A DNA stretch of 17,243 nucleotides from Escherichia coli (GTDB lineage Bacteria; Pseudomonadota; Gammaproteobacteria; Enterobacterales; Enterobacteriaceae). This document shows, one piece after another, positions 1 to 15,454 of this stretch. Below the pieces are notes generated by a model. The model ran no database searches. It saw only the letters and a program-made list of their open reading frames with translations, and had not been told where the DNA came from. Made by a program: the position numbers and the translations under genes. Numbering within the stretch: the stretch's first letter is position 1; each line of letters starts with the position of its first letter. The stretch is from NCBI GenBank assembly GCA_025544715.1, contig GCA_025544715.1_4109.6. One strand, written 5' to 3'.

Positions 1-60
1 ATCTGGTGCAGTACTGGTGAAGATGATTTTTGTAATCATTTCAATCTAGGGGAAGAGTGA
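1..60 (+). CDS. 3' end of an upstream ORF (partial; function unknown)
   Basis: Frame 1 is open from position 1 to TGA at 58-60, which overlaps the next ATG at 60 (TGATG coupling). Too short to classify. Confidence 0.4.
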   Translation: MWCSTGEDDFCNHFNLGEE

Positions 61-416
61 TGGAATTTGATTTTTTAATATCAGTACATTCTTTTAAGCA
101 CAGTTTTCAGTACTTTTGTAATTTAAACAAAGGTGATTTAATGCACAGTGCGAATGAGTATATTCATTACACTCAGGGTAAATTTACATTCATTGATTAC
201 AGTTCATTACAGTATCCACACCAAGATATGCCGGACTATACATTAATGGATACCGCAGAACTATTCCAAGAATCATTAGTATTTGATAAGAAGTACTTGT
301 GTACATTTGAAGAAGTTATTGCAATACAAAATGAAATGAAAGAGTATGCTGCTTTGCATAAACCCAATGCAAGTATTAATCAAGAATACAAATTCAATTT
401 AGGAATTCAAGAATGA
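60..416 (+). CDS. hypothetical protein, FQxS-motif paralog family, short subtype A
   Basis: ORF track 57..416; ATG at 60 preferred over GTG at 57, with GGGGAAGAG upstream. Motif AELFQESLVFD plus CTFEE..QNEMK, shared with the next ORF. Confidence 0.7.
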   Translation: MEFDFLISVHSFKHSFQYFCNLNKGDLMHSANEYIHYTQGKFTFIDYSSLQYPHQDMPDYTLMDTAELFQESLVFDKKYLCTFEEVIAIQNEMKEYAALHKPNASINQEYKFNLGIQE

Positions 417-772
417 CATATGATTATTCTATGTACTATTATAAGTTACCTAAAGGATGGGACTTGTGCTGTAATCTTATTAAGGGAGACTCGGAACATG
501 AGTTGAGTTTATATATGCACTACAAAGATTCTTGTTTTAAATTTATTCATGTATTACATGATGGCTATGACTATGAATCTGAGAGTCTTATAGATTATAC
601 AGTACTAGACGATGGTGAACTATTTCAGGCTGCATTAGTGTTTGATAAGAATAAGTACTCCTGTACATTTGAAGAAATGGTTTCTTTGCAAAATGAAATG
701 AAGAGATTTGAAAAAGAAAACGTATTTAATCCATCCCCATCAAGAACGAATAATTATTATTTCAATATATGA
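413..772 (+). CDS. hypothetical protein, FQxS-motif paralog family, short subtype A
   Basis: ATGA overlap with the upstream ORF. Motif GELFQAALVFD, CNLxKGD, CTFEE, QNEMK; clear paralog of 60..416. Confidence 0.7.
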   Translation: MTYDYSMYYYKLPKGWDLCCNLIKGDSEHELSLYMHYKDSCFKFIHVLHDGYDYESESLIDYTVLDDGELFQAALVFDKNKYSCTFEEMVSLQNEMKRFEKENVFNPSPSRTNNYYFNI

Positions 773-781
773 GATTATAAA

Positions 782-1276
782 ATGACATTACAGAGTTCAT
801 TGGAAAAAGCAAAGAAGATTCATGAGTACATGAATATGGCAAAAGAAGGTTCAGTTTACGGTGTTTTCAAAGACACAAGTACTCAATATTATGTACCGGA
901 TAACCTCCTTTATAATGACTGCTCAGATACAGAAACGTGCGTACTGGATACAGAAACGTGCATACTAGATACCGACCCTAAAGATTATGAATGTTTCATT
1001 GATATGCATTATGAGTACATGGTCTATATTAATGATGCAGATATTACCATCTACAGTACTGACTGCGATTCCGATGACATTATAATTCCGAGTGCAGTTC
1101 TGAATGACCCGTGGGATAGTGAAGAGTATTACTTCCAACAAAGTACTGTATACGATGATGAAGTACTTGATGTTATTATAATTATGTGGTACTTTAAAAG
1201 TATTGGTTCTGGGAACTTCTATTTCGATTACAAATACGTAAAGAAAACTGTAGATAACGGTATTAACAGGGGTTGA
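782..1276 (+). CDS. hypothetical protein, FQxS-motif paralog family, subtype B
   Basis: N-terminus MTLQSSLEKAKKIHEY; C-terminus PWDSEEYYFQQSTVYDDEVLDVIIIMWYFK..FYFD. Contains an in-frame 21-bp tandem duplication (DTETCVL/DTETCIL). Confidence 0.8.
   Translation: MTLQSSLEKAKKIHEYMNMAKEGSVYGVFKDTSTQYYVPDNLLYNDCSDTETCVLDTETCILDTDPKDYECFIDMHYEYMVYINDADITIYSTDCDSDDIIIPSAVLNDPWDSEEYYFQQSTVYDDEVLDVIIIMWYFKSIGSGNFYFDYKYVKKTVDNGINRG
926..967 (+). repeat. in-frame 21-bp tandem duplication within a CDS
   Basis: GATACAGAAACGTGCGTACTG (926-946) followed by GATACAGAAACGTGCATACTA (947-967), 19/21 identical, encoding DTETCVL then DTETCIL. Confidence 0.8.
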
Positions 1277-1277
1277 A

Positions 1278-1748
1278 ATGAGTTTAGAAAGAGCATTAGA
1301 GATTGCGAAGTTAATTGATTTATGCAGCAAAGAAATTGTAGCAAATTGTCTCAATGGATATCTATTCAAGGAAGGTAAATCATATTGTCGAATGATATAC
1401 GATGACAGTAGTGAATATATCCATATGTATGAAGAAAACTTAGATGATTCTGACATAGTACTCACAGGATGTGATGTTAATTTGGAAGATAATTACATGT
1501 ACTTCTGCCGTGATGCTGATATTTTAATCCAAGATTCATTAATTCAAACAGGTGCACCAGAGGTATATCTTCCGTATTCAGTACTGGATAATAACTGGGG
1601 TAGTGAAGATTACTATTTCCAGCAGAGTACTATATATAATGAAGATATACTTGACAAACTTGTTATTTCTTGGTACTTTCATAACACGGATTATAGTAGC
1701 TTCTACATAGACTTGGATCTACTAAGAGTACTTAAAGAGGATATATGA
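1278..1748 (+). CDS. hypothetical protein, FQxS-motif paralog family, subtype B
   Basis: AGGGG RBS upstream. N-terminus MSLERALEIAKLI; C-terminus NWGSEDYYFQQSTIYNEDILDKLVISWYF. Confidence 0.8.
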   Translation: MSLERALEIAKLIDLCSKEIVANCLNGYLFKEGKSYCRMIYDDSSEYIHMYEENLDDSDIVLTGCDVNLEDNYMYFCRDADILIQDSLIQTGAPEVYLPYSVLDNNWGSEDYYFQQSTIYNEDILDKLVISWYFHNTDYSSFYIDLDLLRVLKEDI

Positions 1749-2188
1749 GTTTAGAAAGAGCACTAGAATTAGCCAACAAAATACATCAGTACCATGATAA
1801 AATAAAAAGTGGGTTCTATGCTGATAAAGTACATGCATATGGGAATGAATATTATCTCACAGGAGTAAAGAGATACTCTAATGATATTTTACTTATGGGT
1901 CATGATAAAGACTATACTATACAGTACTCTTCATGTAGTCAATATACTAGTTTTATGGTATATATTCCTGGTACTAAGATTACTTTTGACACATCAAATA
2001 CACCTGTTGACTTCGGGGTACTTGATGGCCCGTGGGGTACTGAAGAGTATTACTTCCAACAGAGTCTCATTTTTAACCAAGAAATGCTTGATTCCTTGGT
2101 TGTGTTGTGGTACTTTAAGGAATTGAATTTTGAACCATTCTTTCTTGACTGGGGGTCATGTGAGTATTTAATTTCAGGGGATTTGTAA
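1745..2188 (+). CDS. hypothetical protein, FQxS-motif paralog family, subtype B
   Basis: ATGA overlap, AGAGGA RBS. N-terminus MSLERALELANKIHQY; C-terminus PWGTEEYYFQQSLIFNQEMLDSLVVLWYFK. Confidence 0.8.
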   Translation: MSLERALELANKIHQYHDKIKSGFYADKVHAYGNEYYLTGVKRYSNDILLMGHDKDYTIQYSSCSQYTSFMVYIPGTKITFDTSNTPVDFGVLDGPWGTEEYYFQQSLIFNQEMLDSLVVLWYFKELNFEPFFLDWGSCEYLISGDL

Positions 2189-2676
2189 TGTCGTTACAAA
2201 GTGCATTGAAAGAAGCAAAGAAAATTCATGAGTTCATGATTATGGTACAGGAAGGTTCAGTACCTGGTGTGTATAAAACATCTGATACGGAATTCTTCGT
2301 TAAGGATAGAGATGATTATGACGAGTCCGAGATATGTGCAGAAACATTAGTACTGCACACTGATACTGGTGACAGTGATAACTGTGAATATCATATGTAC
2401 AATCAGTACATTAGTTATTGCCGTAATGAAGATATTACCATCTACAACACAGATAGTGATGCTGATGACACTATTATTCCTTATTCAGTACTGGAAGGTC
2501 CGTGGGATAGTGAAGAGTTTTACTTCCAGAATAGTACTATCTACAATGAAGAAGAACTGGATGTTATTGTGATTATGTGGTATTTCAAAAGTATTGACTC
2601 CAGTAGTTTCTATTTTGATTATGAATATGTAGAGAATACAGTAGGAGAAGGTAATGTCATTACAAAGTGCTCTTGA
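2188..2676 (+). CDS. hypothetical protein, FQxS-motif paralog family, subtype B
   Basis: TAATG overlap, AGGGGA RBS. N-terminus MSLQSALKEAKKIHEF; C-terminus PWDSEEFYFQNSTIYNEEELDVIVIMWYFK; very close to 782..1276. Confidence 0.8.
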   Translation: MSLQSALKEAKKIHEFMIMVQEGSVPGVYKTSDTEFFVKDRDDYDESEICAETLVLHTDTGDSDNCEYHMYNQYISYCRNEDITIYNTDSDADDTIIPYSVLEGPWDSEEFYFQNSTIYNEEELDVIVIMWYFKSIDSSSFYFDYEYVENTVGEGNVITKCS

Positions 2677-3106
2677 AAAAGCAAAAGAACTACATGGATA
2701 CTTTGAAGATATAAAGGCCGGAAAGTTTAAAGAAGTGTACAAAGCCGAGAACGGTAACTACTACAAAGATGAAATGTATAATAACTCCGTTGGTGTAAGG
2801 GTTATTCTTGGGTTGAATTCCAATAGCCCAGTGTCGTATTCGGAATACAATAGAGATGCAGAATTCATTAGTTATGTTGAAAATGGTAGCATTCGTTTTA
2901 TTAATAGACAAAAACCATTAATTTTGAATTATGAAGTACTGGATGGTCCGTGGGATAGTAAAGAGTATTACTTCCAAAACAGTACTGTATACGATGATGA
3001 AGTACTTGAAGCATTAGTTATTATGTGGTACTTAAAGAGTGTTAACTGTCCTCGATTTTATTTGGATTTCGAAGAACTTCGTAAAGATCCAGAAGGTATA
3101 GAATGA
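2654..3106 (+). CDS. hypothetical protein, FQxS-motif paralog family, subtype B
   Basis: AGGAGAAGG RBS before ATG 2654; overlaps the upstream ORF by 23 nt. N-terminus MSLQSALEKAKELHGY; C-terminus PWDSKEYYFQNSTVYDDEVLEALVIMWYLK. Confidence 0.8.
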   Translation: MSLQSALEKAKELHGYFEDIKAGKFKEVYKAENGNYYKDEMYNNSVGVRVILGLNSNSPVSYSEYNRDAEFISYVENGSIRFINRQKPLILNYEVLDGPWDSKEYYFQNSTVYDDEVLEALVIMWYLKSVNCPRFYLDFEELRKDPEGIE

Positions 3107-3417
3107 AAAACTTATTCAGTGTTCAGTACGTTCCTGGTGAAATTGGTTTATTGTATCTATTTGACCATGATAATTCATTATTACTAGTAGTGAAGAAATG
3201 CCAAGCTAGTTCGTTTGTTGAATACATTCACGATAGTGAATACATTCCTGATTTCCTAGAGTGTGATTATCACGATGAACATGAATCATTTATTTTTCAG
3301 GAATCACTCGTATGGGATAAGTCGATTAACTTCTTTACGTTAATTGAATTACAAAAGCAGGTGAAGTATCATTGGGATTACTTAATTACACAGGATTACA
3401 TTGAGATTGAAACATAA
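3103..3417 (+). CDS. hypothetical protein, FQxS-motif paralog family, short subtype A
   Basis: ATGA overlap, GAAGG RBS. Motif ESFIFQESLVWD. Confidence 0.7.
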   Translation: MKNLFSVQYVPGEIGLLYLFDHDNSLLLVVKKCQASSFVEYIHDSEYIPDFLECDYHDEHESFIFQESLVWDKSINFFTLIELQKQVKYHWDYLITQDYIEIET

Positions 3418-3725
3418 TGACTAAAAATGAATTTGATTCACTTTGTACGGTTTATAATTCATTGACAGAAATACCTGACTTTATTAATTACATTTCAGCG
3501 TTAAATCATATTATGCATAGTTTTGAACAATCGTTTGAAAAGAAATATTCTGGTAGAAAAGTTCTATGTCATATGTCAATGTACTTAGGAGATGGTGAGC
3601 CTTTCACTACCAGTACTACATGTGAAATAAAAAAATATAATATATTATTGGGCACAATAGAATTCACAGTATCCAATGGTGGTAGTTATATGTACTTTAG
3701 AGATGGTGTGGTTGAATTATTATGA
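3417..3725 (+). CDS. hypothetical small protein (no family motif)
   Basis: TAATG overlap with the upstream ORF; 102 aa; lacks the FQxS core. Coding status rests on coupling and the absence of alternatives. Confidence 0.55.
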   Translation: MTKNEFDSLCTVYNSLTEIPDFINYISALNHIMHSFEQSFEKKYSGRKVLCHMSMYLGDGEPFTTSTTCEIKKYNILLGTIEFTVSNGGSYMYFRDGVVELL

Positions 3726-4168
3726 GTTACGAAAGTGATCTTAAACATGCTGAAGAATTAGTTAATATAGTAAAGTTCTTTCAAAATAATGTAAAGTACT
3801 TAGACGACAAAGGGGCATATATTAGTACTATAAGTGTTGGTACAGATATTCTAGGATTAGGTAATGAATATAAGTACGAGTCCCATGATTATGATTTGGA
3901 ATTCAAGTACTTCGAATGGAATTCTGGAACTTTCTATTCAATCGATGAAAGTGGGGAATATTTAGAATTCTCCGAAGAAGAAGTACTATTCTTAAATTCA
4001 GAATATGCTTACTTCCAGTACAGTACTATATACCCAAGTAGTGCATTAAGAGCTTTAGTAGTTTTTAATGCATTTCTGAAAGAGAACTTTAATAATTCTA
4101 TATTCATTGATTTAAATTATGTATATGAACTAAATCAGGTGATATATATGGAGTCCAGAAAAAAATGA
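3722..4168 (+). CDS. hypothetical protein, FQxS-motif paralog family, subtype B variant
   Basis: ATGA overlap. N-terminus MSYESDLKHAEELVNIVKFF; motif EYAYFQYSTIY; paralog of the next ORF. Confidence 0.75.
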   Translation: MSYESDLKHAEELVNIVKFFQNNVKYLDDKGAYISTISVGTDILGLGNEYKYESHDYDLEFKYFEWNSGTFYSIDESGEYLEFSEEEVLFLNSEYAYFQYSTIYPSSALRALVVFNAFLKENFNNSIFIDLNYVYELNQVIYMESRKK

Positions 4169-4614
4169 GTTACGAAAGTGCAATCAAGAAAGCAAATGAT
4201 ATTCTAAAAGTTGTTAAGTTCTTCAAAGAAAATCCTGAATATCTAGATGATGAAAACCATGATCACGATGAGAGATTGAGACGAAAAATTGTCGCTTTAT
4301 TTGACACTAATGCAGATAATTATAGTCTAATTGAGTTAGCATACGATTATATTTCATTGAACCGAAACGGACATTTAGTTAATATAGAAAGACATGAGAG
4401 TGAAGAATCTTTTAAAATTTCAGACATTTTATCCCTGAGTACTGAAGAAGGGTACTTCCAGGGTAGTACTGTTTATGAACAAGGAACGCTTGACAATCTA
4501 TGCACATTCAGTGTAATATATCAGAAATCAGTACTGGATGTATTTTATCTTGACACTGCTGAACTGGATACACTAATCAATTTTGTTACTACTGAAGAGG
4601 CCACATTTGAGTGA
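4165..4614 (+). CDS. hypothetical protein, FQxS-motif paralog family, subtype B variant
   Basis: ATGA overlap. N-terminus MSYESAIKKANDILKVVKFF; motif EEGYFQGSTVY. Confidence 0.75.
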   Translation: MSYESAIKKANDILKVVKFFKENPEYLDDENHDHDERLRRKIVALFDTNADNYSLIELAYDYISLNRNGHLVNIERHESEESFKISDILSLSTEEGYFQGSTVYEQGTLDNLCTFSVIYQKSVLDVFYLDTAELDTLINFVTTEEATFE

Positions 4615-5147
4615 TGAAAGTTAACATCAATGACTTTGATGCATTACAAGATTTATCAAAAAAGATTCGAACTATCGTACCAGTACTCAAAAAATGTAGT
4701 ACTGGTTTAATCGATCCTAGTACTGTTGTTAATGAGAAGTACAATTTTCATCGTGCATTACAGGGTACAGGTGCATTTCAGAAGTGTGATGTACGTGAGA
4801 AACACGTAATTGATACATCATTGTTTTCTATTGGTGCACCTGTGTCGAATAATTCTATTTTCCTGGATAACGCAGGAAATATTCAACAATTAACATTTAA
4901 GAAAAGGAAAAAGAACAATAACATTGGTGTGTACGCGATGAAGTGGGGTCAACCTGATTTGAAGCGTGAAATTCACATCCCTAAGTACAATTACAATTCA
5001 TTCGACGAACAGTGTTTTCAACTATCGTGTACTGACCCTGACTATGCAATCATTCAGTTCTATATGGAATTGCAGATAGCATTTAACAGTAATTTATATA
5101 TTAACTTGTTGGCAATGAACATCGATGAAGTATTCAAAAACATTTAA
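4614..5147 (+). CDS. hypothetical protein, divergent FQxS-motif paralog
   Basis: ORF track 4611..5147 begins at GTG; ATG at 4614 overlaps the upstream TGA (TGATG). Motif DEQCFQLSCTD. Confidence 0.6.
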   Translation: MKVNINDFDALQDLSKKIRTIVPVLKKCSTGLIDPSTVVNEKYNFHRALQGTGAFQKCDVREKHVIDTSLFSIGAPVSNNSIFLDNAGNIQQLTFKKRKKNNNIGVYAMKWGQPDLKREIHIPKYNYNSFDEQCFQLSCTDPDYAIIQFYMELQIAFNSNLYINLLAMNIDEVFKNI

Positions 5148-5343
5148 TCGAATTGAATACATGAGAACTGTGAGTGCAGTGTGGGACATATGGTTCACTA
5201 CTAAACCAAAAATGGATTACCATGACTTTAAGCTCTTGTTCTTCGTTGGCTCTAACAAACAGGATGTTGCAATGAAGGGTTACATTGAGCACTTACAGGA
5301 ACTAATCCAGAAGAGAATATATGAAAATAATAGACCAAAATGA
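5125..5343 (+). CDS. hypothetical small protein (no family motif)
   Basis: ORF track 5125..5343; alternative in-frame ATG at 5161, just after the upstream stop. No clear RBS. Start uncertain. Confidence 0.45.
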   Translation: MKYSKTFNRIEYMRTVSAVWDIWFTTKPKMDYHDFKLLFFVGSNKQDVAMKGYIEHLQELIQKRIYENNRPK

Positions 5344-5512
5344 CATTGCTAAACTATTCAATATATATTCTACTAGAATGATGCAAACAGACTCATATAG
5401 TACTGAATTCAAAGAGTTGAAAGTACTGATGTACTTGGGAACCCAATATCAGGAACAAGTTATTTTGGAATATATTAATTCGTTGAAGAAGGATATCCGT
5501 TATGTACGATGA
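5321..5512 (+). CDS. hypothetical small protein (no family motif)
   Basis: 63-aa ORF overlapping the upstream stop region and overlapped by the downstream ATG at 5502; fits the coupled chain. No motif. Confidence 0.45.
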   Translation: MKIIDQNDIAKLFNIYSTRMMQTDSYSTEFKELKVLMYLGTQYQEQVILEYINSLKKDIRYVR

Positions 5513-6062
5513 TTTAGATCTTGCGTTTGAACGTATGGTAATTTTAATGCAATGTGCAGAAATGCATGAAACAATCCGTCGCACCAAAGGGATTGAATAT
5601 ACAAGTAAACTATTCTCATACGAAAGTCGTCGAGGGATGGATCATTTTTACTGCACTGATTGTTCAAAGTTTTCAGTACTGAAATATTATCATCCTACTG
5701 TTTCCAATAATAGTTTAATATCCACATATGACGGTGATCTGTTTAGTGTAATGTATGACACATTACATCCATCAATTTCAATCTATAAAGATTGCGATAG
5801 TAGTTTATCGTATATAATTGAAGATTACTTATCCCCTAACACTGAAGAGAATATTTTTCAGAACAGTGTATTGCATGATGAATTAAGTATAAAATGCATC
5901 TATATGTTCAATAAGTTAAAAGAATACGCTGATAATAATTACTTAATTGATGAGTTAGCAGTATTGTCTGTTTCCGTTTTTAATACAAATGATATTGATA
6001 TGAAATACTATAATGAGATTTGTAAAGTACATCATATGTATAAGGAACTATTATGCCAATAA
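5502..6062 (+). CDS. hypothetical protein, FQxS-motif paralog family, long subtype C
   Basis: Overlaps the upstream stop. Motif EENIFQNSVLHD followed by a hydrophobic segment. Confidence 0.7.
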   Translation: MYDDLDLAFERMVILMQCAEMHETIRRTKGIEYTSKLFSYESRRGMDHFYCTDCSKFSVLKYYHPTVSNNSLISTYDGDLFSVMYDTLHPSISIYKDCDSSLSYIIEDYLSPNTEENIFQNSVLHDELSIKCIYMFNKLKEYADNNYLIDELAVLSVSVFNTNDIDMKYYNEICKVHHMYKELLCQ

Positions 6063-6655
6063 ATGCAAATAAATGTTGTAGTGCAGATGTGCATTTGTTT
6101 TTTAAGAAATTGGCAAATGATATTATATATATGCAGGAAATGATTTATCACAAACGAGCGGATTTAGAAAAAGCATTAGTACAGTTCTCATTTATGCTTG
6201 ATGGTGATATATTTCTAGAGAGTGATGCATTGCGATTAGTATTAGACAAAAATTCTAAAAGATTTTTATTTCATATAGATAATAAATTATGTTCCTCCGT
6301 ATGTCGTACTTTTTATAATCGTGATTCGGACTTATATCAATTCCTTTATTCTAAAGGTGCAGTAGAAGCATCATATGGTGATGGTTATGCCCTAGGAAAG
6401 AGTATTCCATATATGAAATCATTTAAAATAGAACACATCAGTACTGATGAAGATGCAATGTTCACAAATGATATAACTATGGGACGTGAAGATGCAATGC
6501 GATATATTACAAATTCTATGCATACATTCTTTCAACGAACAGAATTTGATAATGTATATATATCAAATGTAAATATTTTCAATGACCTGTGTCAGTACTT
6601 GAGAAGTGTTTGTGACTTCGATGAAAGTTATTGTAAGCTATACACTGAGGTATAA
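6053..6655 (+). CDS. hypothetical protein, possibly a degenerate family member
   Basis: ATG 6053 overlaps the upstream stop at 6060-6062. 200 aa; only a weak motif remnant (EDAMFTND). Confidence 0.6.
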   Translation: MPINANKCCSADVHLFFKKLANDIIYMQEMIYHKRADLEKALVQFSFMLDGDIFLESDALRLVLDKNSKRFLFHIDNKLCSSVCRTFYNRDSDLYQFLYSKGAVEASYGDGYALGKSIPYMKSFKIEHISTDEDAMFTNDITMGREDAMRYITNSMHTFFQRTEFDNVYISNVNIFNDLCQYLRSVCDFDESYCKLYTEV

Positions 6656-6660
6656 AACAA

Positions 6661-7023
6661 ATGAACACATTAAGTATTACATACTATACAACTAAAAAAT
6701 TAGTTACTTGTTTAATATCTTTGAAGACAAACCATGATGATATGTTTGATATGGCTGCATATGAATTAGAATTATCAGAAGATGGCTTCAAGAGCTATGA
6801 AGTATATAGCTATGTCCGTGAAGATGTAATTGACACTACACTAATGCAAGAGGATGAGTTATTCCAAGAAAGTTTAGTATGGGATAATAAGTACGATTGT
6901 AACTTTGATTTCTTATGTTTAATCCAGAAAGAAATGAAAAGAATCTTTGATAATTATCCAATCAAACGTTTCAGTACTGCACCTGAGCAATATAAAAGGA
7001 TTATATTCACCTATGAAGATTGA
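6661..7023 (+). CDS. hypothetical protein, FQxS-motif paralog family, short subtype A
   Basis: GAGG upstream. Motif DELFQESLVWD .. IQKEMKRI. Confidence 0.7.
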   Translation: MNTLSITYYTTKKLVTCLISLKTNHDDMFDMAAYELELSEDGFKSYEVYSYVREDVIDTTLMQEDELFQESLVWDNKYDCNFDFLCLIQKEMKRIFDNYPIKRFSTAPEQYKRIIFTYED

Positions 7024-7390
7024 ATTTGAAGTTATTACATATAGTATAGGTAATGGTATCCGTTGCTATGTACAAGCAAGGCATATGGTTCCTGATGATA
7101 AACTGTCACCCAAAAGCTTCTGTATCACACAAGATCTCTTAGATATCAACGGAGAGTACAAGTACATATATTATCTTACTAAGGGTTATTGTAGTACACG
7201 TGGTTTTAATATTGTAGCTGTTTCTAGAGATGAAATTGATGATTTAACTGAGTACGGGGAAGAAGAGATGTTCCAGTACAGTACTGTTTTTAATGAACTG
7301 GATGTGTTTCTGTTACGAAAAATACAACACATTATGCAAGAATGTTTGCATCATAAGAGAGGTATTGTATGCGACGTGAATCTGAATTAG
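7013..7390 (+). CDS. hypothetical protein, FQxS-motif paralog family, subtype B-like
   Basis: ORF track 6947..7390; I prefer the internal ATG at 7013 (AAAGGA 12 nt upstream, 11-nt overlap with the upstream ORF instead of 77). Motif EEEMFQYSTVFN. Confidence 0.65.
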   Translation: MKIEFEVITYSIGNGIRCYVQARHMVPDDKLSPKSFCITQDLLDINGEYKYIYYLTKGYCSTRGFNIVAVSRDEIDDLTEYGEEEMFQYSTVFNELDVFLLRKIQHIMQECLHHKRGIVCDVNLN

Positions 7391-7710
7391 TTAAAGTAAT
7401 GTACGCTACTCATATTAAACTACTACTTGTTAAATTTGATTATAATAAAAAACATAATGATTTCTATACTTTAATTCGTGATGAAAATACATTCTCCTTG
7501 CGATGCAACAATATACCCTTGAAGATAAATGATTTTACTTCACTTGACGAGGGGGAATTATTTCAAGAATCATTAGTTTTTAATAGTAATATAAAAATTG
7601 ATATAGAAGTTATTAAAAAATACCAGATGCTATTGAACAAAATTATGAATTGTTACCCATGTGAAATAGGTGGTCATATGCAGTTCAAATCAAAAATGTA
7701 TGAATTATGA
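7369..7710 (+). CDS. hypothetical protein, FQxS-motif paralog family, short subtype A
   Basis: AGAGAGG RBS before ATG 7369. Motif GELFQESLVFN. Confidence 0.7.
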   Translation: MRRESELVKVMYATHIKLLLVKFDYNKKHNDFYTLIRDENTFSLRCNNIPLKINDFTSLDEGELFQESLVFNSNIKIDIEVIKKYQMLLNKIMNCYPCEIGGHMQFKSKMYEL

Positions 7711-7717
7711 GGTTTAT

Positions 7718-8254
7718 ATGTTAGATGAGAAAATGAACAATGGAACTCAATATAATCATCTTAAGTTGGATACATTCGAATCAGCTATCAGTACAGCACA
7801 AGATATTATCGATATTATCAAGTTCATTAAAGAAGATAAGTTCAAATGTTTGAAAATACTAAATCGTTCAATGTACCGTGATAAAAATATTCATGTATCA
7901 GTACGTAGACCGAAAGATCAAGAAAGTGGGAGAGATTTCTATAACAACAGTGAGCAGTTCGAATGTGAATATGATCCAGAATTTAGAGGTGGTTTCATGT
8001 GTTACAGTATGAAGGATACCTCACACATTGAGATACGTTCATTGAACGGTGGCATACGTACATTAGAGTTTATTGATATAGTTTTAAATCAGGAATACTA
8101 CTTTCAACTATCATTATTGTTTCCTGCATACGATTTAGGAGTTCTATTCATGTATAAGTACTTTCATGAGCACTGGAATGAAGACTTCTATCTGGACTTA
8201 GAAGATTACCACTTAGTTTGGAAAGAAATGGTAAAACTTCGCAACCCATCTTGA
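7718..8254 (+). CDS. hypothetical protein, FQxS-motif paralog family, subtype B-like
   Basis: ORF track 7670..8254; the in-frame ATG at 7718 lies just after the upstream stop, with TGAGG upstream. Motif QEYYFQLSLLF .. FYLDLEDY. Confidence 0.7.
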   Translation: MLDEKMNNGTQYNHLKLDTFESAISTAQDIIDIIKFIKEDKFKCLKILNRSMYRDKNIHVSVRRPKDQESGRDFYNNSEQFECEYDPEFRGGFMCYSMKDTSHIEIRSLNGGIRTLEFIDIVLNQEYYFQLSLLFPAYDLGVLFMYKYFHEHWNEDFYLDLEDYHLVWKEMVKLRNPS

Positions 8255-8280
8255 CACCCTCCGATTCTTTGTGATATAAT
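8251..8280 (+). promoter_or_regulatory. sigma70-type promoter with extended -10 (TTGACA-N18-TGaTATAAT)
   Basis: -35 TTGACA at 8251-8256 (overlapping the upstream stop codon), extended -10 TGaTATAAT at 8272-8280, sitting in the only sizeable gap before ATG 8314. Confidence 0.6.
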
Positions 8281-8313
8281 CTCTTTATATTAATTGTAAA
8301 GGGTTATATCACA

Positions 8314-8790
8314 ATGTCCAAAGACCTATCATTTAGCAATGCACAAAAAATAGCAAAAGACATTATCAGGGTTTATAAATTTCTTACAAATGTTACTGAA
8401 GATTTTTCCGTAGGCAAACATACAGTCAAAAAACGAAATGGATACCTTTCCTTTATGGATGGGTTACTCTATAGTTCAGATGAATCAACTTGTAGTATTA
8501 GAGTGCTTGATGAAGTACCAAGTGGTGATTTTATTTCATACCATTTCCCAAGTTCAGATAATTTCAAATACTACAATCATCATCTTATAAATGAAGGATT
8601 TGATACGGCTGAAATTAACACTGAAGAAGAGTTTTTTCAGTACAGTACTGTGTACCCAGAGAGGATTGTTTTCAGTTCAGTGATTTACACTACTCTTAAA
8701 AATGAACTAAATTCCGATAGTGATCATTTCTACTTGGACCTGAACAATCTCGATTGTATTATTGAGTACCTGGAGAAAAATGGTTTATGA
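8314..8790 (+). CDS. hypothetical protein, FQxS-motif paralog family, subtype B-like
   Basis: AAAGGG RBS. N-terminus MSKDLSFSNAQKIAKDIIRVYKFL; motif EEEFFQYSTVY .. HFYLDLNNL. Confidence 0.75.
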   Translation: MSKDLSFSNAQKIAKDIIRVYKFLTNVTEDFSVGKHTVKKRNGYLSFMDGLLYSSDESTCSIRVLDEVPSGDFISYHFPSSDNFKYYNHHLINEGFDTAEINTEEEFFQYSTVYPERIVFSSVIYTTLKNELNSDSDHFYLDLNNLDCIIEYLEKNGL

Positions 8791-9281
8791 TTACTACAGA
8801 ATATGATTACGATGGTGTTTTAGAATTTGCAGAAAATATCTATCGCATTGCAAAGGAGTTCAGAAGTCCTGCCCCATTTGGTGGTATGTTCGAATACGAT
8901 GAGTTTAGTTCATCCAAAGGAAGACTTGCGTTTACTAATGTAAGAGGTAATCAAATCTATGCCGAGTACTTTGATGACAATGACTTTCATTACAAAGCCG
9001 GATACATTTCATATTGCCCTGGGTCTGATTTGAAGATTAATATTGACAATTATAGAGAAGCAGTATTTGTTAAGTATGATGATTTAGTGCTCATGTCAGA
9101 GGAAATGTACTTTCAGGGTTCTTGTATTCATGATGTAAAAGTACTTAATGCTATGTTATTTTATGGTGCACTACTTCATCATTACAAATACAAACAACGA
9201 TTCTTTTTAGATTTAGTAGTATACGATAAATGCGTGGATTATTTGAATGCAAAATACAACAACAATTCAGTACATGACTGA
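8787..9281 (+). CDS. hypothetical protein, FQxS-motif paralog family, subtype B-like
   Basis: ATGA overlap. Motif SEEMYFQGSCIHD .. FFLDLVVY. Confidence 0.75.
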   Translation: MITTEYDYDGVLEFAENIYRIAKEFRSPAPFGGMFEYDEFSSSKGRLAFTNVRGNQIYAEYFDDNDFHYKAGYISYCPGSDLKINIDNYREAVFVKYDDLVLMSEEMYFQGSCIHDVKVLNAMLFYGALLHHYKYKQRFFLDLVVYDKCVDYLNAKYNNNSVHD

Positions 9282-9609
9282 TGGTACTGAATACTTTGTT
9301 TCAAGATATGTAATCAACCACAACCATTATGTAACCTATATTCCAGAATACAATCAATTTTATATCCAGATTTATCAATATAATGGAAAGATAAATGATA
9401 TATATTCAGAAATAAAAATCCCTGATTATAGTACTTTATCAGAAGAGGAATTGTTTCAGCAGAGCACTATCAGTACTGAAGATGTGTACGAAATAATGGA
9501 ATACCAAAAGGTACTTAAACATTTTCATGAAGAAAATGATATACAAATAGATATTGTTAAACCGTGGTGTTACAATACATATGAGGTAAATTATGTTAGA
9601 AATGATTAA
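9247..9609 (+). CDS. hypothetical protein, FQxS-motif paralog family, short subtype A
   Basis: ORF track start 9247; alternative in-frame ATG at 9274, nearer the upstream stop at 9279-9281. Motif EEELFQQSTIS. Confidence 0.6.
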   Translation: MQNTTTIQYMTDGTEYFVSRYVINHNHYVTYIPEYNQFYIQIYQYNGKINDIYSEIKIPDYSTLSEEELFQQSTISTEDVYEIMEYQKVLKHFHEENDIQIDIVKPWCYNTYEVNYVRND

Positions 9610-10006
9610 AATTATGCAACGTTGTGTTGTTGACCAACACGGGATATATGGATATCGTTTAAGTGCTCCTATTGACAAAAATAAAACAACCTATGTAAGC
9701 TATAATGCTGTACAAGGATTTGATATATTCATTAGTACTAATTATCAAATCAAACAAGCTAAAGATGTGTCTATAATGACCCCTGATGAGTTATTTCAGT
9801 ACAGCTTAGTCTTTCCTACATGTATCGATTTACAACGTCTAGGAGCGATACAGAAGGTTTTACGTGAACATAAAGTACAACCCAATAAAGTCACACACAT
9901 TCCAGAAACAATCTTCAAAACCATAGAAGTAGAAACTCCTGATTATATGTTAAGTGATGATGAGTACTACGAGAAACACTTCCCTGGTAAAGTTTGGAGA
10001 GACTAA
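9593..10006 (+). CDS. hypothetical protein, FQxS-motif paralog family, short subtype A
   Basis: GAGGTAAA RBS 4-5 nt before ATG 9593. Motif PDELFQYSLVF. Confidence 0.7.
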   Translation: MLEMIKIMQRCVVDQHGIYGYRLSAPIDKNKTTYVSYNAVQGFDIFISTNYQIKQAKDVSIMTPDELFQYSLVFPTCIDLQRLGAIQKVLREHKVQPNKVTHIPETIFKTIEVETPDYMLSDDEYYEKHFPGKVWRD

Positions 10007-10497
10007 TGAACCGAAAGTACAGAGAAACTATGAAGTTCGCCAAGGAGTGTTTAGAAGTGTTTGAGTTTATCAATGCTCATAAAGATTTACTCCATAGATA
10101 CATTGCAATCAGTGAGACAGATGACCATAGGTACATATGTTCTCGAATTCAAGATAAGATATATAAGATTGTGTTCTCGGAAACATACACAGATACATCT
10201 AATTCACTATATGATTTTGCACGTACTGATTACGTTTCATACAAATCTTGGTCTGATAGTATTAAAATTGTGCACAAGCAAAATACATTTTATTCTTTTC
10301 TTACGGACATTTCCGAAGAAAGTTACTTTCAAAACAGTTTAATTTATACAGAAAAAGAACTCAAAATGTTATACATTATGTCGTACTTTAAAAAGTACTG
10401 CAAATTTAATACATTATCTTTTGAGATTTCTGCAATGAAAGTATTCATTAAAAATGTAAAAGAATTAAAGAGGGTTTTTAATGTACATAGAAAATGA
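10006..10497 (+). CDS. hypothetical protein, FQxS-motif paralog family, subtype B-like
   Basis: ORF track 9994..10497 begins at TTG; ATG at 10006 overlaps the upstream TAA (TAATG), with TGGAGAGA upstream. Motif EESYFQNSLIY .. MSYFKK. Confidence 0.7.
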   Translation: MNRKYRETMKFAKECLEVFEFINAHKDLLHRYIAISETDDHRYICSRIQDKIYKIVFSETYTDTSNSLYDFARTDYVSYKSWSDSIKIVHKQNTFYSFLTDISEESYFQNSLIYTEKELKMLYIMSYFKKYCKFNTLSFEISAMKVFIKNVKELKRVFNVHRK

Positions 10498-11023
10498 GAA
10501 TGTAAAATGCATTACTGACATTTGTATAAAATTAATGAAAATTTTCATTAACCCAAAATACAAAAAACGTTCATTACATCATAATATTGATGAGCATTGT
10601 ACCATTAATATACTAGGTAGTATTCTTGATGTAAAATATGATGGTAAAATGTTATTCGGCATAAGAGAAGAGAAAATAGATGATGCATTCTTTTCCTGTA
10701 AAGATAAATTTGAACCTTCTGATTATAAAGTAATTATTCGTGATGATAGCATCTACATTAGTAGTGATTATTCAAATTACTTCGATAAAATATACACTGA
10801 AAACGTTGACTACCATTATGAAATGATAGATTTACCAGTAACAGACATTGATATGGAGAGAATCAAATTTTCATTATCAGATAATGAGTACTTAGGTATA
10901 CAAACATATTATTCACTACAAGGAAAGATTCCACCTGCTATGTATATAAGGATTGAGATTGGTAATGTATTCAATGATAAGGTTATATCAATTGCTGATA
11001 AAATATTGAGGGTTGAATTATGA
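10481..11023 (+). CDS. hypothetical protein, possibly a degenerate family member
   Basis: GAGGG RBS 6 nt before ATG 10481. 180 aa; core motif not clearly recognisable. Confidence 0.6.
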   Translation: MYIENENVKCITDICIKLMKIFINPKYKKRSLHHNIDEHCTINILGSILDVKYDGKMLFGIREEKIDDAFFSCKDKFEPSDYKVIIRDDSIYISSDYSNYFDKIYTENVDYHYEMIDLPVTDIDMERIKFSLSDNEYLGIQTYYSLQGKIPPAMYIRIEIGNVFNDKVISIADKILRVEL

Positions 11024-11583
11024 ATATCAATGATTACCAATTTCATAGGCTTGAATTTCGTCATTGTGTTGCATTTGCAAAAACATTGATGTGCATCATT
11101 GACACTCTTTCATCCAAACAATTTCGTAAGGATAATGATTTATTTCTGAAAAAAGGTCGTGTAACATCAACCGATATCGGTATTGAACTATTTGTTGATA
11201 TCAGTGTTGATACCGGAGACAGTACAAGGGTTGGTTGTATAGGTCATATTGGTACACATTGCTTCACATGGAATCCAAATACAAGTCAAGTGCGAATTGA
11301 TTATAGAAATTCACGTTGGGTTGATCTTAGTACTGAATCAGATTTAGAATCAGCTATGTTCCAGCTAAGTTTAATTCACAATCCTAATGAACTTCTTTAC
11401 ATTATTACTTTCAGTTATCTGTTACAAAACTACGATAATCCATCAGGGTTTTTCATAGAATCGGATATAGAAGAAATTATGGAAGAGTTTCCTAGTTTAA
11501 AGGATATTCTGGTAGAAAAAGATTTCTATGAAGACTTCAGAGATTTATACGACATGCACTTGGAGTTATTTAAGAATGGATAA
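11020..11583 (+). CDS. hypothetical protein, FQxS-motif paralog family, long subtype C
   Basis: ATGA overlap, GAGGG RBS. Motif ESAMFQLSLIHN followed by a hydrophobic segment. Confidence 0.7.
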   Translation: MNINDYQFHRLEFRHCVAFAKTLMCIIDTLSSKQFRKDNDLFLKKGRVTSTDIGIELFVDISVDTGDSTRVGCIGHIGTHCFTWNPNTSQVRIDYRNSRWVDLSTESDLESAMFQLSLIHNPNELLYIITFSYLLQNYDNPSGFFIESDIEEIMEEFPSLKDILVEKDFYEDFRDLYDMHLELFKNG

Positions 11584-12094
11584 AGATGATATTCTAATTA
11601 GACTAATTAATAGTTTAATAAAGTTCTCAAATAATGATGTCGATACATACAAAGTAGGGGATATTGAATTTAAATCATTTGGTATGTACGGTGAGGATAA
11701 AACATATTATGCGTCAATGAAATTTCAAGATTTTCACGAGATGTTAATATCGTTATCATATGAAGATGTTGATCCAAGATGGAGTTCCAGTATTTCACTA
11801 TCGAGAATGGTAATTCGTAGTAAGCATCGTTATATTTCGTCAAAGAATACTCCTAACTTGATTAATATTGTGTTGAATGAAAATACAAATCCCCTATCTA
11901 AACATGATATCGTACCGTTAACCGATGAAGTTCTTTTTCAATTGAGTACCATTTGTGATGAAGATGTGATATCATGTATGAAAATTTATGAGAAGGTTGG
12001 GAGTGATATTCCCATGAACTATTACCTAACTATAGATGGAACGTACCTTCGAGATGAGGTTCTAGCGTACATTGACAGTGTTTTACCAAAATAA
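11576..12094 (+). CDS. hypothetical protein, FQxS-motif paralog family, long subtype C
   Basis: ORF track 11528..12094; the in-frame ATG at 11576 overlaps the upstream stop (ATGGATAA), with GGAG upstream. Motif DEVLFQLSTICD. Followed directly by a terminator. Confidence 0.65.
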   Translation: MDKDDILIRLINSLIKFSNNDVDTYKVGDIEFKSFGMYGEDKTYYASMKFQDFHEMLISLSYEDVDPRWSSSISLSRMVIRSKHRYISSKNTPNLINIVLNENTNPLSKHDIVPLTDEVLFQLSTICDEDVISCMKIYEKVGSDIPMNYYLTIDGTYLRDEVLAYIDSVLPK

Positions 12095-12120
12095 AGACCC
12101 GTATGGGTCTTTTTGTGTTT
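12093..12120 (+). terminator. intrinsic (rho-independent) terminator
   Basis: Perfect 8-bp stem AAAGACCC / GGGTCTTT with loop GTAT, followed by a T-rich tract (TTTTTGTGTTT), immediately after stop codon 12092-12094. Confidence 0.7.
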
Positions 12121-12125
12121 ATGGC

Positions 12126-12154
12126 TTTACAAGAGCATTCAGGTGTGTTATACT
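12126..12154 (+). promoter_or_regulatory. sigma70-type promoter with extended -10 (TTTACA-N17-TGtTATACT)
   Basis: -35 TTTACA at 12126-12131, 17-nt spacer, TG at 12146-12147, -10 TATACT at 12149-12154; lies between the terminator and the GGAGG RBS of the next ORF. Confidence 0.55.
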
Positions 12155-12181
12155 TGATTTTAAATAGAGTTGGAGGAATCT

Positions 12182-12748
12182 ATGAGTACTGAATTAATTA
12201 AAGAAGTCACATTACTTCTGAAGCATTGTTTTAAGTTCATTCCTGATACTGGTTCCCGCCAGTACATTAAAGTTAATGAGAAATATAACATCAATATCCT
12301 TGTATCTGAAACTGCGAGCAGTTATGCTAACATTGAGTTGGATTCTGAAGAAAAATATACAGTATTACAAATCATAGCAGATGTACAACGTAAACAAGAT
12401 TATCGTTCTTCATTTTACAACGATCATCTATGTGTTTCCTCAAACTTCAGTGAGAATAAAATTGTGTATAAAAATTTATACACACATGAAGTGATTGATA
12501 CATATAATTATAAAATTACATCTGATGAATACAATGTGCTAATGTTCAACGCAAACCTTTTATATGATGCCAGTACTGTACGCTGTTTAGAGTTAGCATA
12601 TAAAATTCCAAAGATCATGGAAAGAAAAGATTTGATTCACTTTAAAACTATTTTAAAATACAGTACAAAAGAATTAGAGGATTTAGTACAGGCTCTTAAG
12701 AATTTCATTAATGAACATGTACCTGTTAAATTCGAGGATGCACAATGA
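12182..12748 (+). CDS. hypothetical protein, possibly a degenerate family member
   Basis: ORF track 12170 begins at TTG; ATG at 12182 is preceded by GGAGG (12172-12176). Only a weak motif remnant (NVLMFNANLLYD). Confidence 0.65.
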   Translation: MSTELIKEVTLLLKHCFKFIPDTGSRQYIKVNEKYNINILVSETASSYANIELDSEEKYTVLQIIADVQRKQDYRSSFYNDHLCVSSNFSENKIVYKNLYTHEVIDTYNYKITSDEYNVLMFNANLLYDASTVRCLELAYKIPKIMERKDLIHFKTILKYSTKELEDLVQALKNFINEHVPVKFEDAQ

Positions 12749-13329
12749 ACCATATCAGAACTAAAATTTTGAGACTCATGCATGACATTGCAGAACTTTC
12801 AGAGATTCATGACATTACGGAAATTGTTGAATTTGATAATTATCGACTGAAAATTGAAAACAAATCCAAACATCGTTTTGGTTCAGTTCAGTTGGATGTA
12901 TATAAAACTTATGAATTTTCTAAAAAAATTAAAAGTTCATGGGATACGATTACTATGTACATTCGCACATCCAGAAATCGTGAACGTATTGGTTCTATTT
13001 CTTATAATATGGTATTTGCGAATGCATTACATGAAAAAATGAATAAAATTGTAGAATCTAATTTCAGTGAAGATGATGGTTTTATTGGGTTGGATGTTCC
13101 ACCAGAATTAGATCAAAGTGAAGATATTCGAGATGCATTCATTTTCCAGAAATCATTGTTGGACAATTACAAAGAATTCGAGTACTTAATGCTTTGTTAC
13201 GATACTGCAAAAATTCTTGATTGTGGTGAACTAGTTATGTACAATGATTTTATCAATTGCAAGACTGATGTTCTGAATACACTACTTCAAAATATAGAAT
13301 CTGTTAAGGAAAAATATGAACGCTTATAG
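12745..13329 (+). CDS. hypothetical protein, FQxS-motif paralog family, long subtype C
   Basis: ATGA overlap, GAGGA RBS. Motif DAFIFQKSLLDN. Confidence 0.7.
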   Translation: MNHIRTKILRLMHDIAELSEIHDITEIVEFDNYRLKIENKSKHRFGSVQLDVYKTYEFSKKIKSSWDTITMYIRTSRNRERIGSISYNMVFANALHEKMNKIVESNFSEDDGFIGLDVPPELDQSEDIRDAFIFQKSLLDNYKEFEYLMLCYDTAKILDCGELVMYNDFINCKTDVLNTLLQNIESVKEKYERL

Positions 13330-13897
13330 TTATATGACAGAACGCCATCAATTATTATATGATATCAGTAAAAAAATGCTATCAATTGTTGGTAGTGCGA
13401 AAGAAATTGAAAAACAATATCTCATCCGTGATGTAGCAATTTCATCTAAATGTTGGTCAAATGAATATTACGACCACGGTATTCTGACTATTTCAGGGGC
13501 CAGAAATATTTGTATTGTAAAAAATAAAAGTAAAAGTAATAAAGAGTGTGAGATTAGAACCGATATACAAATTAAGGATGATGGAAGTTTTTCACATCAC
13601 CCATTCCATATTAGTACTGTTGGTGTTTTATATAATATTAAAGTACTATTCGGTGATGAAGAGTATGTGTTAAAAGCTATCAATCCAGAATCAAGTACAG
13701 TTGAAGAAGAACTGTTCCAGATGAGCACTGTTATACCTGAAGAGGTTCTTAGTACTGTTATTTTTTGTAGTTTAATTTATCATGAATACAAAAAGAACCA
13801 GTTCGATTTCCACATGTTAGGAACGTACATCTTCAATAATTTGAATGTAGATCGTTTAAATGCATTAAATTCAGCAATGGATAAGGTGCTACAATGA
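13316..13897 (+). CDS. hypothetical protein, FQxS-motif paralog family, long subtype C
   Basis: AAGGAAA RBS. Motif EEELFQMSTVI followed by a hydrophobic segment. Confidence 0.7.
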   Translation: MNAYSYMTERHQLLYDISKKMLSIVGSAKEIEKQYLIRDVAISSKCWSNEYYDHGILTISGARNICIVKNKSKSNKECEIRTDIQIKDDGSFSHHPFHISTVGVLYNIKVLFGDEEYVLKAINPESSTVEEELFQMSTVIPEEVLSTVIFCSLIYHEYKKNQFDFHMLGTYIFNNLNVDRLNALNSAMDKVLQ

Positions 13898-14322
13898 CAA
13901 GAGATGATTGTTTGTACATATGGGATATAATTGAAACTACACTTTCAAATCCAGAAAATTATAAAACAAAAAAAAGACAACGACACAAAATATGGATAGA
14001 TTTGTTCGTTGAGGGCATACACGCAGTGACTATTTGGGATTCACCGAGGGCATCAGCATCTACTCTATTGGACAATGAATGCATTGATTGCATTAATTCC
14101 ACTTTTCATCTCTACGGTACTACATTTTTCGGTACATTTCTGGATATTGAAAGTAAAGATGATATTGATTCACTTGCGTTACAATACCAAGTACTGTATA
14201 ATACTAAATTAATTTACGATTTAGTACTAGCTTCTTATGTGTATAAATTAATGATGAAATATAATCATATTTCTGTTTCAGTTTATACTAAGGATATTCT
14301 TTCATTAAGAGACAAAACATGA
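13894..14322 (+). CDS. hypothetical protein, possibly a degenerate family member
   Basis: ATGA overlap. Degenerate motif SLALQYQVLYN. Confidence 0.6.
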   Translation: MTRDDCLYIWDIIETTLSNPENYKTKKRQRHKIWIDLFVEGIHAVTIWDSPRASASTLLDNECIDCINSTFHLYGTTFFGTFLDIESKDDIDSLALQYQVLYNTKLIYDLVLASYVYKLMMKYNHISVSVYTKDILSLRDKT

Positions 14323-15393: not shown

Positions 15394-15399
15394 ATTTGT

Positions 15400-15425
15400 A
15401 CCAGGGGTTGACTCTGGTATTTTTG
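15400..15425 (+). terminator. intrinsic terminator (candidate)
   Basis: Stem TACCAG / CTGGTA with a 9-nt loop (GGGTTGACT), then TTTTT, directly after stop codon 15391-15393. Confidence 0.5.
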
Positions 15426-15437
15426 TATGATACATTG
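15409..15437 (+). promoter_or_regulatory. candidate promoter (TTGACT-N17-TACATT)
   Basis: TTGACT at 15409-15414 inside the terminator loop, and a weak -10 (TACATT) 17 nt downstream; followed by strong RBS AAAGGAGA and ATG 15455. Weak -10, so low confidence. Confidence 0.3.
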
Positions 15438-15454
15438 TCCTAAAGGAGAATTTT

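Follow-up and report, generated by a model that had tools for sequence, protein, structure and literature searches.

The DNA analysed here, hereafter the window, is a stretch of 17,243 nucleotides (nt) from the Escherichia coli assembly GCA_025544715.1 (contig GCA_025544715.1_4109.6), and our subject is a block of five adjacent related genes at positions 782-3106 together with the tandem gene array in which this block lies. The whole window is 97.9% identical at the nt level to Escherichia phage 121Q, and the region 700-3200 is 96.6% identical. All 36 records that match are Asteriusvirus-type jumbo phages, with E. coli or Salmonella as hosts and genome sizes of 310-386 kb. To judge from these matches, the window is DNA of an Asteriusvirus jumbo coliphage of the 121Q/PBECO4 group. 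The open reading frames (ORFs) of at least 50 amino acids (aa) that tile the window are all on the plus strand, with neighbours mostly overlapping by 1-23 nt and with three intergenic gaps wider than ~10 nt in the whole window, the GC content of which is 28-36%. Genes 370-374 of 121Q are the counterparts of the five ORFs, and the genes of this neighbourhood are all annotated "hypothetical protein". The array, the five genes and their shared elements are as follows.

57-17179, plus strand: the part of the tandem array within the window, with 37 co-oriented and mostly overlapping ORFs, of which 27 are supported by a hidden Markov model (HMM) as members of the [ST]EExYFQxS family
782-1276, plus strand: paralog 1, 164 aa, ortholog of 121Q gene 370, phrog_9317
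1278-1748, plus strand: paralog 2, 156 aa, ortholog of 121Q gene 371
1745-2188, plus strand: paralog 3, 147 aa, ortholog of 121Q gene 372
2188-2676, plus strand: paralog 4, 162 aa, ortholog of 121Q gene 373, with paralog 1 as its nearest paralog (54-56% aa identity)
2654-3106, plus strand: paralog 5, 150 aa, ortholog of 121Q gene 374, absent from A4, Turkey5 and JNE01
1090-1234, plus strand: C-terminal conserved block of paralog 1, encoding VLxGPWDSEEYYFQxST..MWYFK
1109-1127 and also 2500-2518, plus strand: 19-nt exact repeat CCGTGGGATAGTGAAGAGT, with 1 mismatch at 2948 and 2 at 2030
1142-1170, plus strand: 29-nt exact repeat AGTACTGTATACGATGATGAAGTACTTGA, left copy in paralog 1, a candidate gene-conversion tract with paralog 5
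2981-3009, plus strand: 29-nt exact repeat AGTACTGTATACGATGATGAAGTACTTGA, right copy in paralog 5

A preliminary description of this locus had presented the five as near-identical paralogs with repeats at the DNA level. That they are adjacent homologs on the same strand was borne out: they match one another in blastp searches with E values of 1e-17 to 3e-56, and phrog_9317 is matched over its full length by each of them (E 1e-54 to 1e-65; profile positions 1-155/160 or more). The blocks described at both ends were likewise confirmed, with MSLxSALExAKxIH at the N-terminus and PWDSEEYYFQxST..MWYFK at the C-terminus common to the five. Near-identical, however, they are not, for their codon-aligned pairwise identity is 29-56% at the aa level and 47-69% at the nt level, and their synonymous sites are saturated by the Nei-Gojobori method (proportion of synonymous differences, pS, 0.61-0.76; synonymous divergence, dS, 1.2 to undefined). 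Similarity at the DNA level does exist as short exact stretches of 19 and 29 nt, but the longer repeats, which appear as off-diagonal segments of 48-261 nt in direct orientation when the window is compared with itself, are merely 67-85% identical. The counterparts of the C-terminal block of paralog 1 lie at 1574-1718, 2481-2625 and 2929-3073, with 67-77% nt identity to the copy at 2481. As for the strings reported to recur nearly verbatim, CCGTGGGATAGTGAAGAGT is indeed exact at 1109 and 2500 and AGTACTGTATACGATGATGAAGTACTTGA at 1142 and 2981, with 0 matches expected in shuffled sequence for either, but AGTACTGTATACGATGATGAAGTACTTGA is exact at these two positions only and does not recur near 2500-2560, where it had also been placed. 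Short verbatim DNA strings can coexist between paralogs with saturated dS and are therefore no sign of recent duplication. Such saturation, which had been named beforehand as speaking against a recent origin, largely holds for the five genes, with the C-terminal block excepted.

Inside paralog 1, a 21-nt tandem repeat of 2.3 copies at 925-972 encodes DTETC[VI]L twice, and its unit is single in A4 and in two database homologs (P0009 and P0015). The difference is thus a small slippage polymorphism within the gene, located in an acidic loop of paralog 1.

In 121Q, PBECO4, slurp01 and EC.P1, all five genes have orthologs at the corresponding positions, with aa identities of 68-98% that in every case lie well above those to any paralog, and the orthologs cluster by position without exception. 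For paralog 5, 33 of the 36 Asteriusvirus records hold an ortholog; the three that do not are the distant A4, Turkey5 and JNE01. Between orthologs, the ratio of nonsynonymous to synonymous divergence (dN/dS) is 0.05-0.90 for the five and 0.02-0.90 across the genes of the window, where it is mostly 0.1-0.3 and the ORFs are intact across genomes; every copy is therefore a maintained gene. By region, the ratio is 0.25 in the N-terminus and middle and 0.17-0.19 in the C domain, and no pervasive positive selection was found in ortholog dN/dS, either gene-wide or by region. Pseudogenes or junk ORFs, as a further candidate, are ruled out by ratios well below 1 and by the intact orthologs. Since nearly all 36 records hold a positional counterpart of every copy, and since purifying selection acts on all of them, a recent duplication is rejected, as it also is by the saturated dS between paralogs. 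As judged from sequence, the five are an old, selectively maintained sub-cluster (phrog_9317) of a large jumbo-phage multigene family. By the same measure they are still the youngest local cluster in the window, with core-domain identities of 49-71% among the five vs. an array mean of 24.5%. Across the array, similarity shows no trend with distance (rho -0.014, p=0.36), and there are only three local clusters of similarity, which are the five, o57/o413 and o14812/o15455 (ORFs outside the block are named by the position of their first nt).

Two further pairs had been pointed out as local duplications of the same kind, one at 60 (here 57) and 413 and one at 3722 and 4165. Both are pairs of paralogs, but with aa identities of 39% and 28%, respectively, they too are old and not recent. 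These ORFs, and one more family member that is referred to below, are as follows.

57-772, plus strand: o57 and o413, short-form family members of 119 aa each, 39% identical in aa sequence, with the motif ELFQESLVFD
3722-4168, plus strand: o3722 (MSYES...), family member, flanked by the 16-nt direct repeat ATGAGTTACGAAAGTG
4165-4614, plus strand: o4165 (MSYES...), conserved partner of o3722, with 28% aa identity to it
7013-7390, plus strand: o7013, family member, with its true ATG at 7013, where the mechanical ORF list gave TTG at 6947

The five belong to a much wider family. The C-terminal motif E-E-x-[YF]-F-Q-x-S-[TL]-[VIL] is found in 29 ORFs of the window, and single linkage of blastp matches joined 22 of the 37. 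An HMM built from the linked 22 detected more members in the window as well as 121Q genes 342-369 upstream and 405 and 408 downstream; after iteration, it detected 27 of the 37 window ORFs, 41 genes in 121Q (~28 kb), 41 in A4 and 32 in the retrieved locus of Turkey5. The motif codons vary (Phe is TTC in 14 and TTT in 14; Gln is CAG in 17 and CAA in 12; Ser is AGT in 17, TCA in 5 and AGC in 3), and since this variation includes Ser codons of the AGT, AGC and TCN types, [ST]EExYFQxS[TL][ILV]Y is a protein-level motif. A profile search against 1.84 billion representatives returned 112 clusters at E<=1e-3, all of 39-200 aa, so that a second domain is excluded because none is long enough to hold one. 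Of 110 remote representatives, 96 carry the motif, with hardly any variation at E, E, Y/F, F, Q and S. All named members of these clusters are from Asteriusvirus phages or ~350-kb "E. coli" contigs, and tblastn with one family member likewise returned Asteriusvirus records only. The proteins are small (~100-200 aa) and mostly acidic, with a median isoelectric point of 4.96 in the window. From N- to C-terminus, long forms of ~145-200 aa run through a first helix, a beta region, the motif helix, a long helix, an FYxD strand and a last helix; short forms of 104-137 aa lack the first, N-terminal helix. Profile searches of Pfam, NCBIfam and PDB sequences gave nothing significant. In PHROGs, the array members fall into phrog_9317, phrog_12674, phrog_13866, phrog_15629 and phrog_22855, which are all of "unknown function" and have weak cross-hits; PHROGs thus splits into separate families what the motif, the HMM iteration and the predicted folds indicate to be one superfamily.

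Eight ORFs of the array were missed by the HMM, at 3417-3725, 6053-6655, 10481-11023, 12182-12748, 13894-14322, 14319-14828, 16003-16605 and 16595-17179. Four of them keep a degenerate motif (EEIEFQNNTL, AALMQLSTS, ERLFQELCVS and LALQYQVLYN), and the eight may be either very diverged members or unrelated insertions.

Confident AlphaFold2 models of a long form (paralog 4; mean predicted local distance difference test score, pLDDT, 86.4; predicted template modelling score 0.82) and of a short form (84.3 and 0.78, respectively) have their elements in the same order. One alpha+beta fold is predicted for the family: an antiparallel beta-sheet is followed by the short helix that bears the motif, then by a long helix and lastly by a strand, and the long forms have the N-terminal helix in addition. 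Outside the motif, the sequences have diverged strongly. Foldseek comparison with viral models returned only uncharacterised proteins of Rak2-like jumbo phages (121Q, RaK2, GAP32, Serratia BF and Yersinia fHe-Yen9-04), so that relatives recognised by structure alone exist in other Rak2-like phages, beyond the sequence matches in Asteriusvirus. As the nearest comparisons, alpha+beta sheets of the Polo-box-like and RNA polymerase beta-lobe-like types were set beside this fold.

The near-invariance of E, E, Y/F, F, Q and S, both among the remote representatives and in the 29 window ORFs, raises the question of what the motif does. The consensus site of the tobacco etch virus (TEV) NIa protease is E-x-x-Y-x-Q, followed by S or G at P1'. 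The long-form E-E-x-Y-F-Q (e.g., at 1121-1150) fits this core at P6, P3 and P1, with a variable P1' and with Ser at P2', and the conserved residues are polar or acidic, which would be unusual for a purely structural core. The motif might accordingly be read as a cleavage site for a Gln-specific 3C/NIa-like protease or as a docking site for a common partner. We regard this reading as unlikely. In the models, the motif lies in a predicted helix, at 109-115 in the long form, in blocks with mean pLDDT of 92-97, and at 61-70 in the short form, that is, inside the folded core at pLDDT >90 and not in a linker. The conserved Ser is at P2' and not at P1', the short forms have Leu instead of Tyr at P3, and the only protease named in the phAPEC6 paper (PMC7247149) is a T4-type prohead protease, although no genome-wide protease search was run. 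The [ST]-E-E portion would also fit a helix N-cap box, a purely structural explanation. A structural role is therefore more likely than cleavage, because the models place the motif in a helix that is buried within their most confidently predicted part and because [ST]-E-E fits a helix cap. A practical corollary is that, where long forms are expressed with TEV-cleavable tags, cleavage at the motif should be checked.

The C-terminal block, in which the exact repeats lie, also bears on whether frequent gene conversion keeps the N- and C-terminal blocks of the paralogs alike in DNA, i.e., on concerted evolution. At positions where two paralogs have the same residue, their codons agree 149 times in the C-terminal block, compared with 104.9 expected, while in the gene middle the same test gives 78 vs. 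74.3, so that the excess is confined to the C-terminal block. It is concentrated in paralogs 1, 4 and 5; the pair 1 and 5, for example, agrees in 23 of 26 cases. In a Sawyer-type permutation test, an identity run of 16 consecutive polymorphic sites (29 nt) between paralogs 1 and 5 has p=0.0004. In the ortholog alignment, the tract in paralog 1 is paralog-5-like in five genomes and paralog-4-like in A4, which is without paralog 5, and a CCG>CAG change is common to paralogs 1 and 4 in 121Q and to paralogs 1, 4 and 5 in slurp01. Ortholog dS in the C-terminal block vs. elsewhere is 0.18 vs. 0.21 for PBECO4, 0.49 vs. 0.40 for EC.P1 and 0.32 vs. 0.28 for A4, so that synonymous divergence between orthologs is not depressed there. 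All of these observations speak for concerted evolution, and other results speak against it. A quartet test over six genomes gave 32 "concerted" sites shared within a genome and 51 "cross" sites, without any within-genome excess; orthologs group by position every time; the other nine paralog pairs have p>=0.03, uncorrected, in the run test; and the motif codons differ across the wider family, so that the conservation is at the protein level. Because of the quartet result, we see no ongoing homogenisation, and concerted evolution as an account of the repeated DNA is rather unlikely. We conclude that the sequences record at least one short, past gene-conversion event, with concerted evolution not current; of the gene conversion first suggested for this block, the putative old 29-nt tract between paralogs 1 and 5 is what stands.

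A constraint on the nucleotides themselves, such as an RNA or DNA element, was also considered for the repeated DNA. Selection at this level is not the explanation, because ortholog dS in the C-terminal block is not reduced and the motif codons vary across the family. An element of this kind is further ruled out by the lack of any Rfam family or tRNA and by the presence of only one small in-gene tandem repeat.

Whole genes do come and go in the array. O3722 is present in 12 of the 36 records and absent from 121Q, PBECO4 and slurp01. The indel is 443 bp long and is bounded by the perfect 16-nt direct repeat ATGAGTTACGAAAGTG (3722-3737 and 4165-4180), whose copies are the 5' ends of o3722 and o4165; a single copy is left in 121Q, with the deletion junction exactly there. 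O7013 is present in 9 of the 36 records, and its junction in PBECO4 lies inside a TGAATT microhomology beside both start codons, which gives an in-frame hybrid N-terminus. EC.P1 is without o3417, with the junction at the ATG. For these members, which neighbour the five-gene block, the indel junctions are thus repeats of 4-16 nt at gene starts; no junctions were found in the C-terminal repeats or inside the five-gene block. None of the 36 records has both o3722 and o7013, and the window is therefore a gene combination new to the phage collection. Such unit-precise indels with junctions at gene starts show how accessory regions of jumbo phages get remodelled.

It had been proposed that the array may expand and contract as a gene accordion by unequal homologous recombination. 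On such a reading, the five would be young tandem copies that still change in number, as in poxvirus K3L amplification. The direct repeats, both the exact ones of 19 and 29 nt and the longer, diverged ones, could serve such a process, neighbouring family members vary in presence between isolates, and the phrog_9317 sub-family is down to 4 copies in A4 and ~2-3 in Turkey5. On the other side, the paralogs are saturated in dS and share only 29-56% of their aa, all five are kept with positional orthologs in 33 of 36 records, the junctions that were observed are at start-codon repeats and not in the C-terminal repeats, and no hybrid or fused paralogs were found in six aligned genomes. The comparison of copy number between related genomes gave five positional orthologs in the close relatives and no variation of the block, its copy number being unchanged in 121Q, PBECO4, slurp01 and EC.P1. 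The accordion is thus very unlikely and, for this block, largely refuted; what survives of it is the whole-gene indels in the array (o3722, o7013 and o3417), which are not in this block and do not run through C-terminal repeats. On the genomes compared, the array gains and loses whole genes next to the five-gene block, not within it.

Recombination between lineages is suggested by the pattern of divergence along the array. A4 matches the window (780-2635 vs. A4 locus 20001-21832) at 85.8% nt identity across paralogs 1-4 only. Against A4, dS is 0.07-0.24 for paralogs 1-3 outside the C-terminal block and 1.17 for paralog 4, and the array outside paralogs 1-4 is only 26-53% identical to A4 at the protein level. 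This match looks like a cassette of 1.4-1.9 kb recently exchanged between distant Asteriusvirus lineages. In paralog 2, dS against A4 rises from 0.075 to 0.72 at the C-terminal block, a step that indicates a putative recombination breakpoint inside the gene. Ortholog divergence is strongly mosaic elsewhere, too, at 9994-10497, 5502-6062, 8314-8790 and other places: o9994, for example, shares 66% identity with its ortholog in PBECO4, compared with 97-98% for the adjacent genes, and between genes, dS against EC.P1 varies from 0.03 to 3.1. Such a mosaic indicates probable gene-by-gene replacement of alleles by recombination.

Signals for transcription are found in the three intergenic gaps.

8251-8280, plus strand: perfect sigma-70 consensus promoter, TTGACA-18-TATAAT with extended TG, in one of the three gaps
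12093-12154, plus strand: intrinsic-terminator-like hairpin (12093-12112) with a promoter-like site (12126-12154) downstream of it, in the second gap
15398-15420, plus strand: terminator-like hairpin, in the third gap

In the upstream part of the 121Q array, six of the nine strongest plus-strand promoter-like sites (>=11/12 matches) are in intergenic gaps. In the CBB paper, an analogous region of small ORFs with RpoD-like promoters was assigned to early host-takeover genes. The orthologs of the array in phAPEC6 are gp409c-gp445c, none of which is in the virion proteome table of 62 proteins of that phage. Given the sigma-70-like promoters, the absence from the virion table and the acidic, small proteins, we infer that the array most likely encodes early, non-structural proteins that interact with the host. 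Paralogous structural proteins, e.g., of the hairy whiskers or inner body, would be a different interpretation, for which there is precedent in the paralogous head or inner-body families of other jumbo phages (phiKZ), according to the reference list of the phAPEC6 paper. It is extremely improbable, however, with gp409c-gp445c missing from the structural table and with the genes set among small ORFs and sigma-70-like promoters, at a distance from the genes annotated as structural.

We consider it likely that the five genes are an old local sub-cluster in an Asteriusvirus-specific tandem multigene family with an early host-interaction role. Tandem duplication built the array long before the sequenced Asteriusvirus lineages split, and purifying selection now keeps each copy. 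Remodelling takes place in three ways: by loss and gain of whole gene units through the short direct repeats at gene starts, by probable swapping of alleles between co-infecting relatives and by rare short gene-conversion tracts in the conserved C-terminal block. The genes would be transcribed early by the host sigma-70 RNA polymerase, and their products may be non-structural cytoplasmic proteins in which a common scaffold with variable surfaces binds different host or host-defence targets.

Several observations weigh against this proposal. Overall counts of promoter-like sites are no higher than in shuffled sequences, and the top sites alone are informative. No annotation or experiment gives a function, and there is no Pfam, NCBIfam or PDB sequence hit. 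The gene-wide positive selection that an arms-race model might predict is absent. Ten window ORFs are not detected by the family HMM. Homology between the short and long forms lies mainly in the motif region (20 columns in hhalign, E 1e-4), and the further links are a few blastp matches of 59-73 aa; the common origin of the two forms therefore rests on the motif, the shared topology and these few links, because profile-profile comparison aligns the motif region alone.

A bolder possibility, which we put forward as rather unlikely, is that the array is an "adaptor library" of the phage. Here ~40 early proteins would share the invariant [ST]EExYFQxS element for one common partner, which might be a host machine or a Gln-specific protease, and would present divergent beta-sheet faces to different targets, and whole-gene indels and the exchange of cassettes would reshuffle the library from isolate to isolate. 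If true, it would be the counterpart in a bacterial virus of the substrate-adaptor multigene families of giant eukaryotic viruses.

About 8% of a 350-kb phage genome is taken up by one family that has no assigned function, database domain or structural relative, and every copy of which is under purifying selection. The definition of the family by its motif, two architectures, boundaries and transcription units turns ~40 "hypothetical proteins" per genome into one tractable target, which is relevant to host takeover or anti-defence by jumbo phages.

Features expected of a tandem multigene family are present here: the homologs are adjacent and co-oriented, the members are kept by selection and the taxonomic range is restricted. 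African swine fever virus MGF360/505, the poxvirus host-range families and the K3L accordion are multigene families of large eukaryotic DNA viruses. The array resembles MGF360/505 and the poxvirus families in its many co-oriented tandem paralogs, old divergence, whole-gene loss and gain and suspected role in host interaction, but the proteins and the domain of the hosts are unrelated, and the array is without near-identical copies or evidence of adaptive amplification. Among jumbo phages, phage G likewise has a lineage-specific expansion of small domains, with ~35 zinc-ribbon proteins (Iyer et al., 2021; PMC7824862); in contrast to these, the FQxS family has no pattern of Zn ligands and differs in fold, which is alpha+beta and carries the ExxYFQxS motif. 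This family is large and uncharacterised, and its structure is novel; to a specialist, an array of paralogs in a jumbo phage would come as no great surprise.

That the array exists is already known. In one sentence, Hua et al. (2017; mBio, PMC5646251) reported a tandem array of ">30 very similar genes" in 121Q, and the phAPEC6 paper repeats the point; neither gives coordinates, a family definition, a motif, a structure or data on variation. The superfamily definition, motif, predicted fold, member counts, selection regime, conversion tract and indel junctions are new, and neither Iyer et al. (2021) nor the other Asteriusvirus genome papers describe the FQxS family. The 41 members in 121Q fit the count of Hua et al. 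(2017), whereas the array's mean core identity fits "very similar" poorly. The sentence could alternatively refer to an adjacent family of ~70-aa LGTxYQE proteins.

This second tandem family is unrelated to the first and consists of proteins of ~65-90 aa with an LGT[NQD]YQE motif. Its 24 blastp-linked copies are 121Q genes 319-346 (121Q locus 4862-11320), directly upstream of the FQxS array. Two ORFs embedded in the FQxS array, o5125 (5125-5343, VGSNKQD) and o5321 (5321-5512, LGTQYQEQ), look by their motifs like members of it.

Two starts in the mechanical ORF list are probably wrong. For o6947, the ATG at 7013 is likelier and agrees with the annotation of 121Q gene 384, and for o12170, the ATG at 12182, with GGAGG just before it, is likelier.

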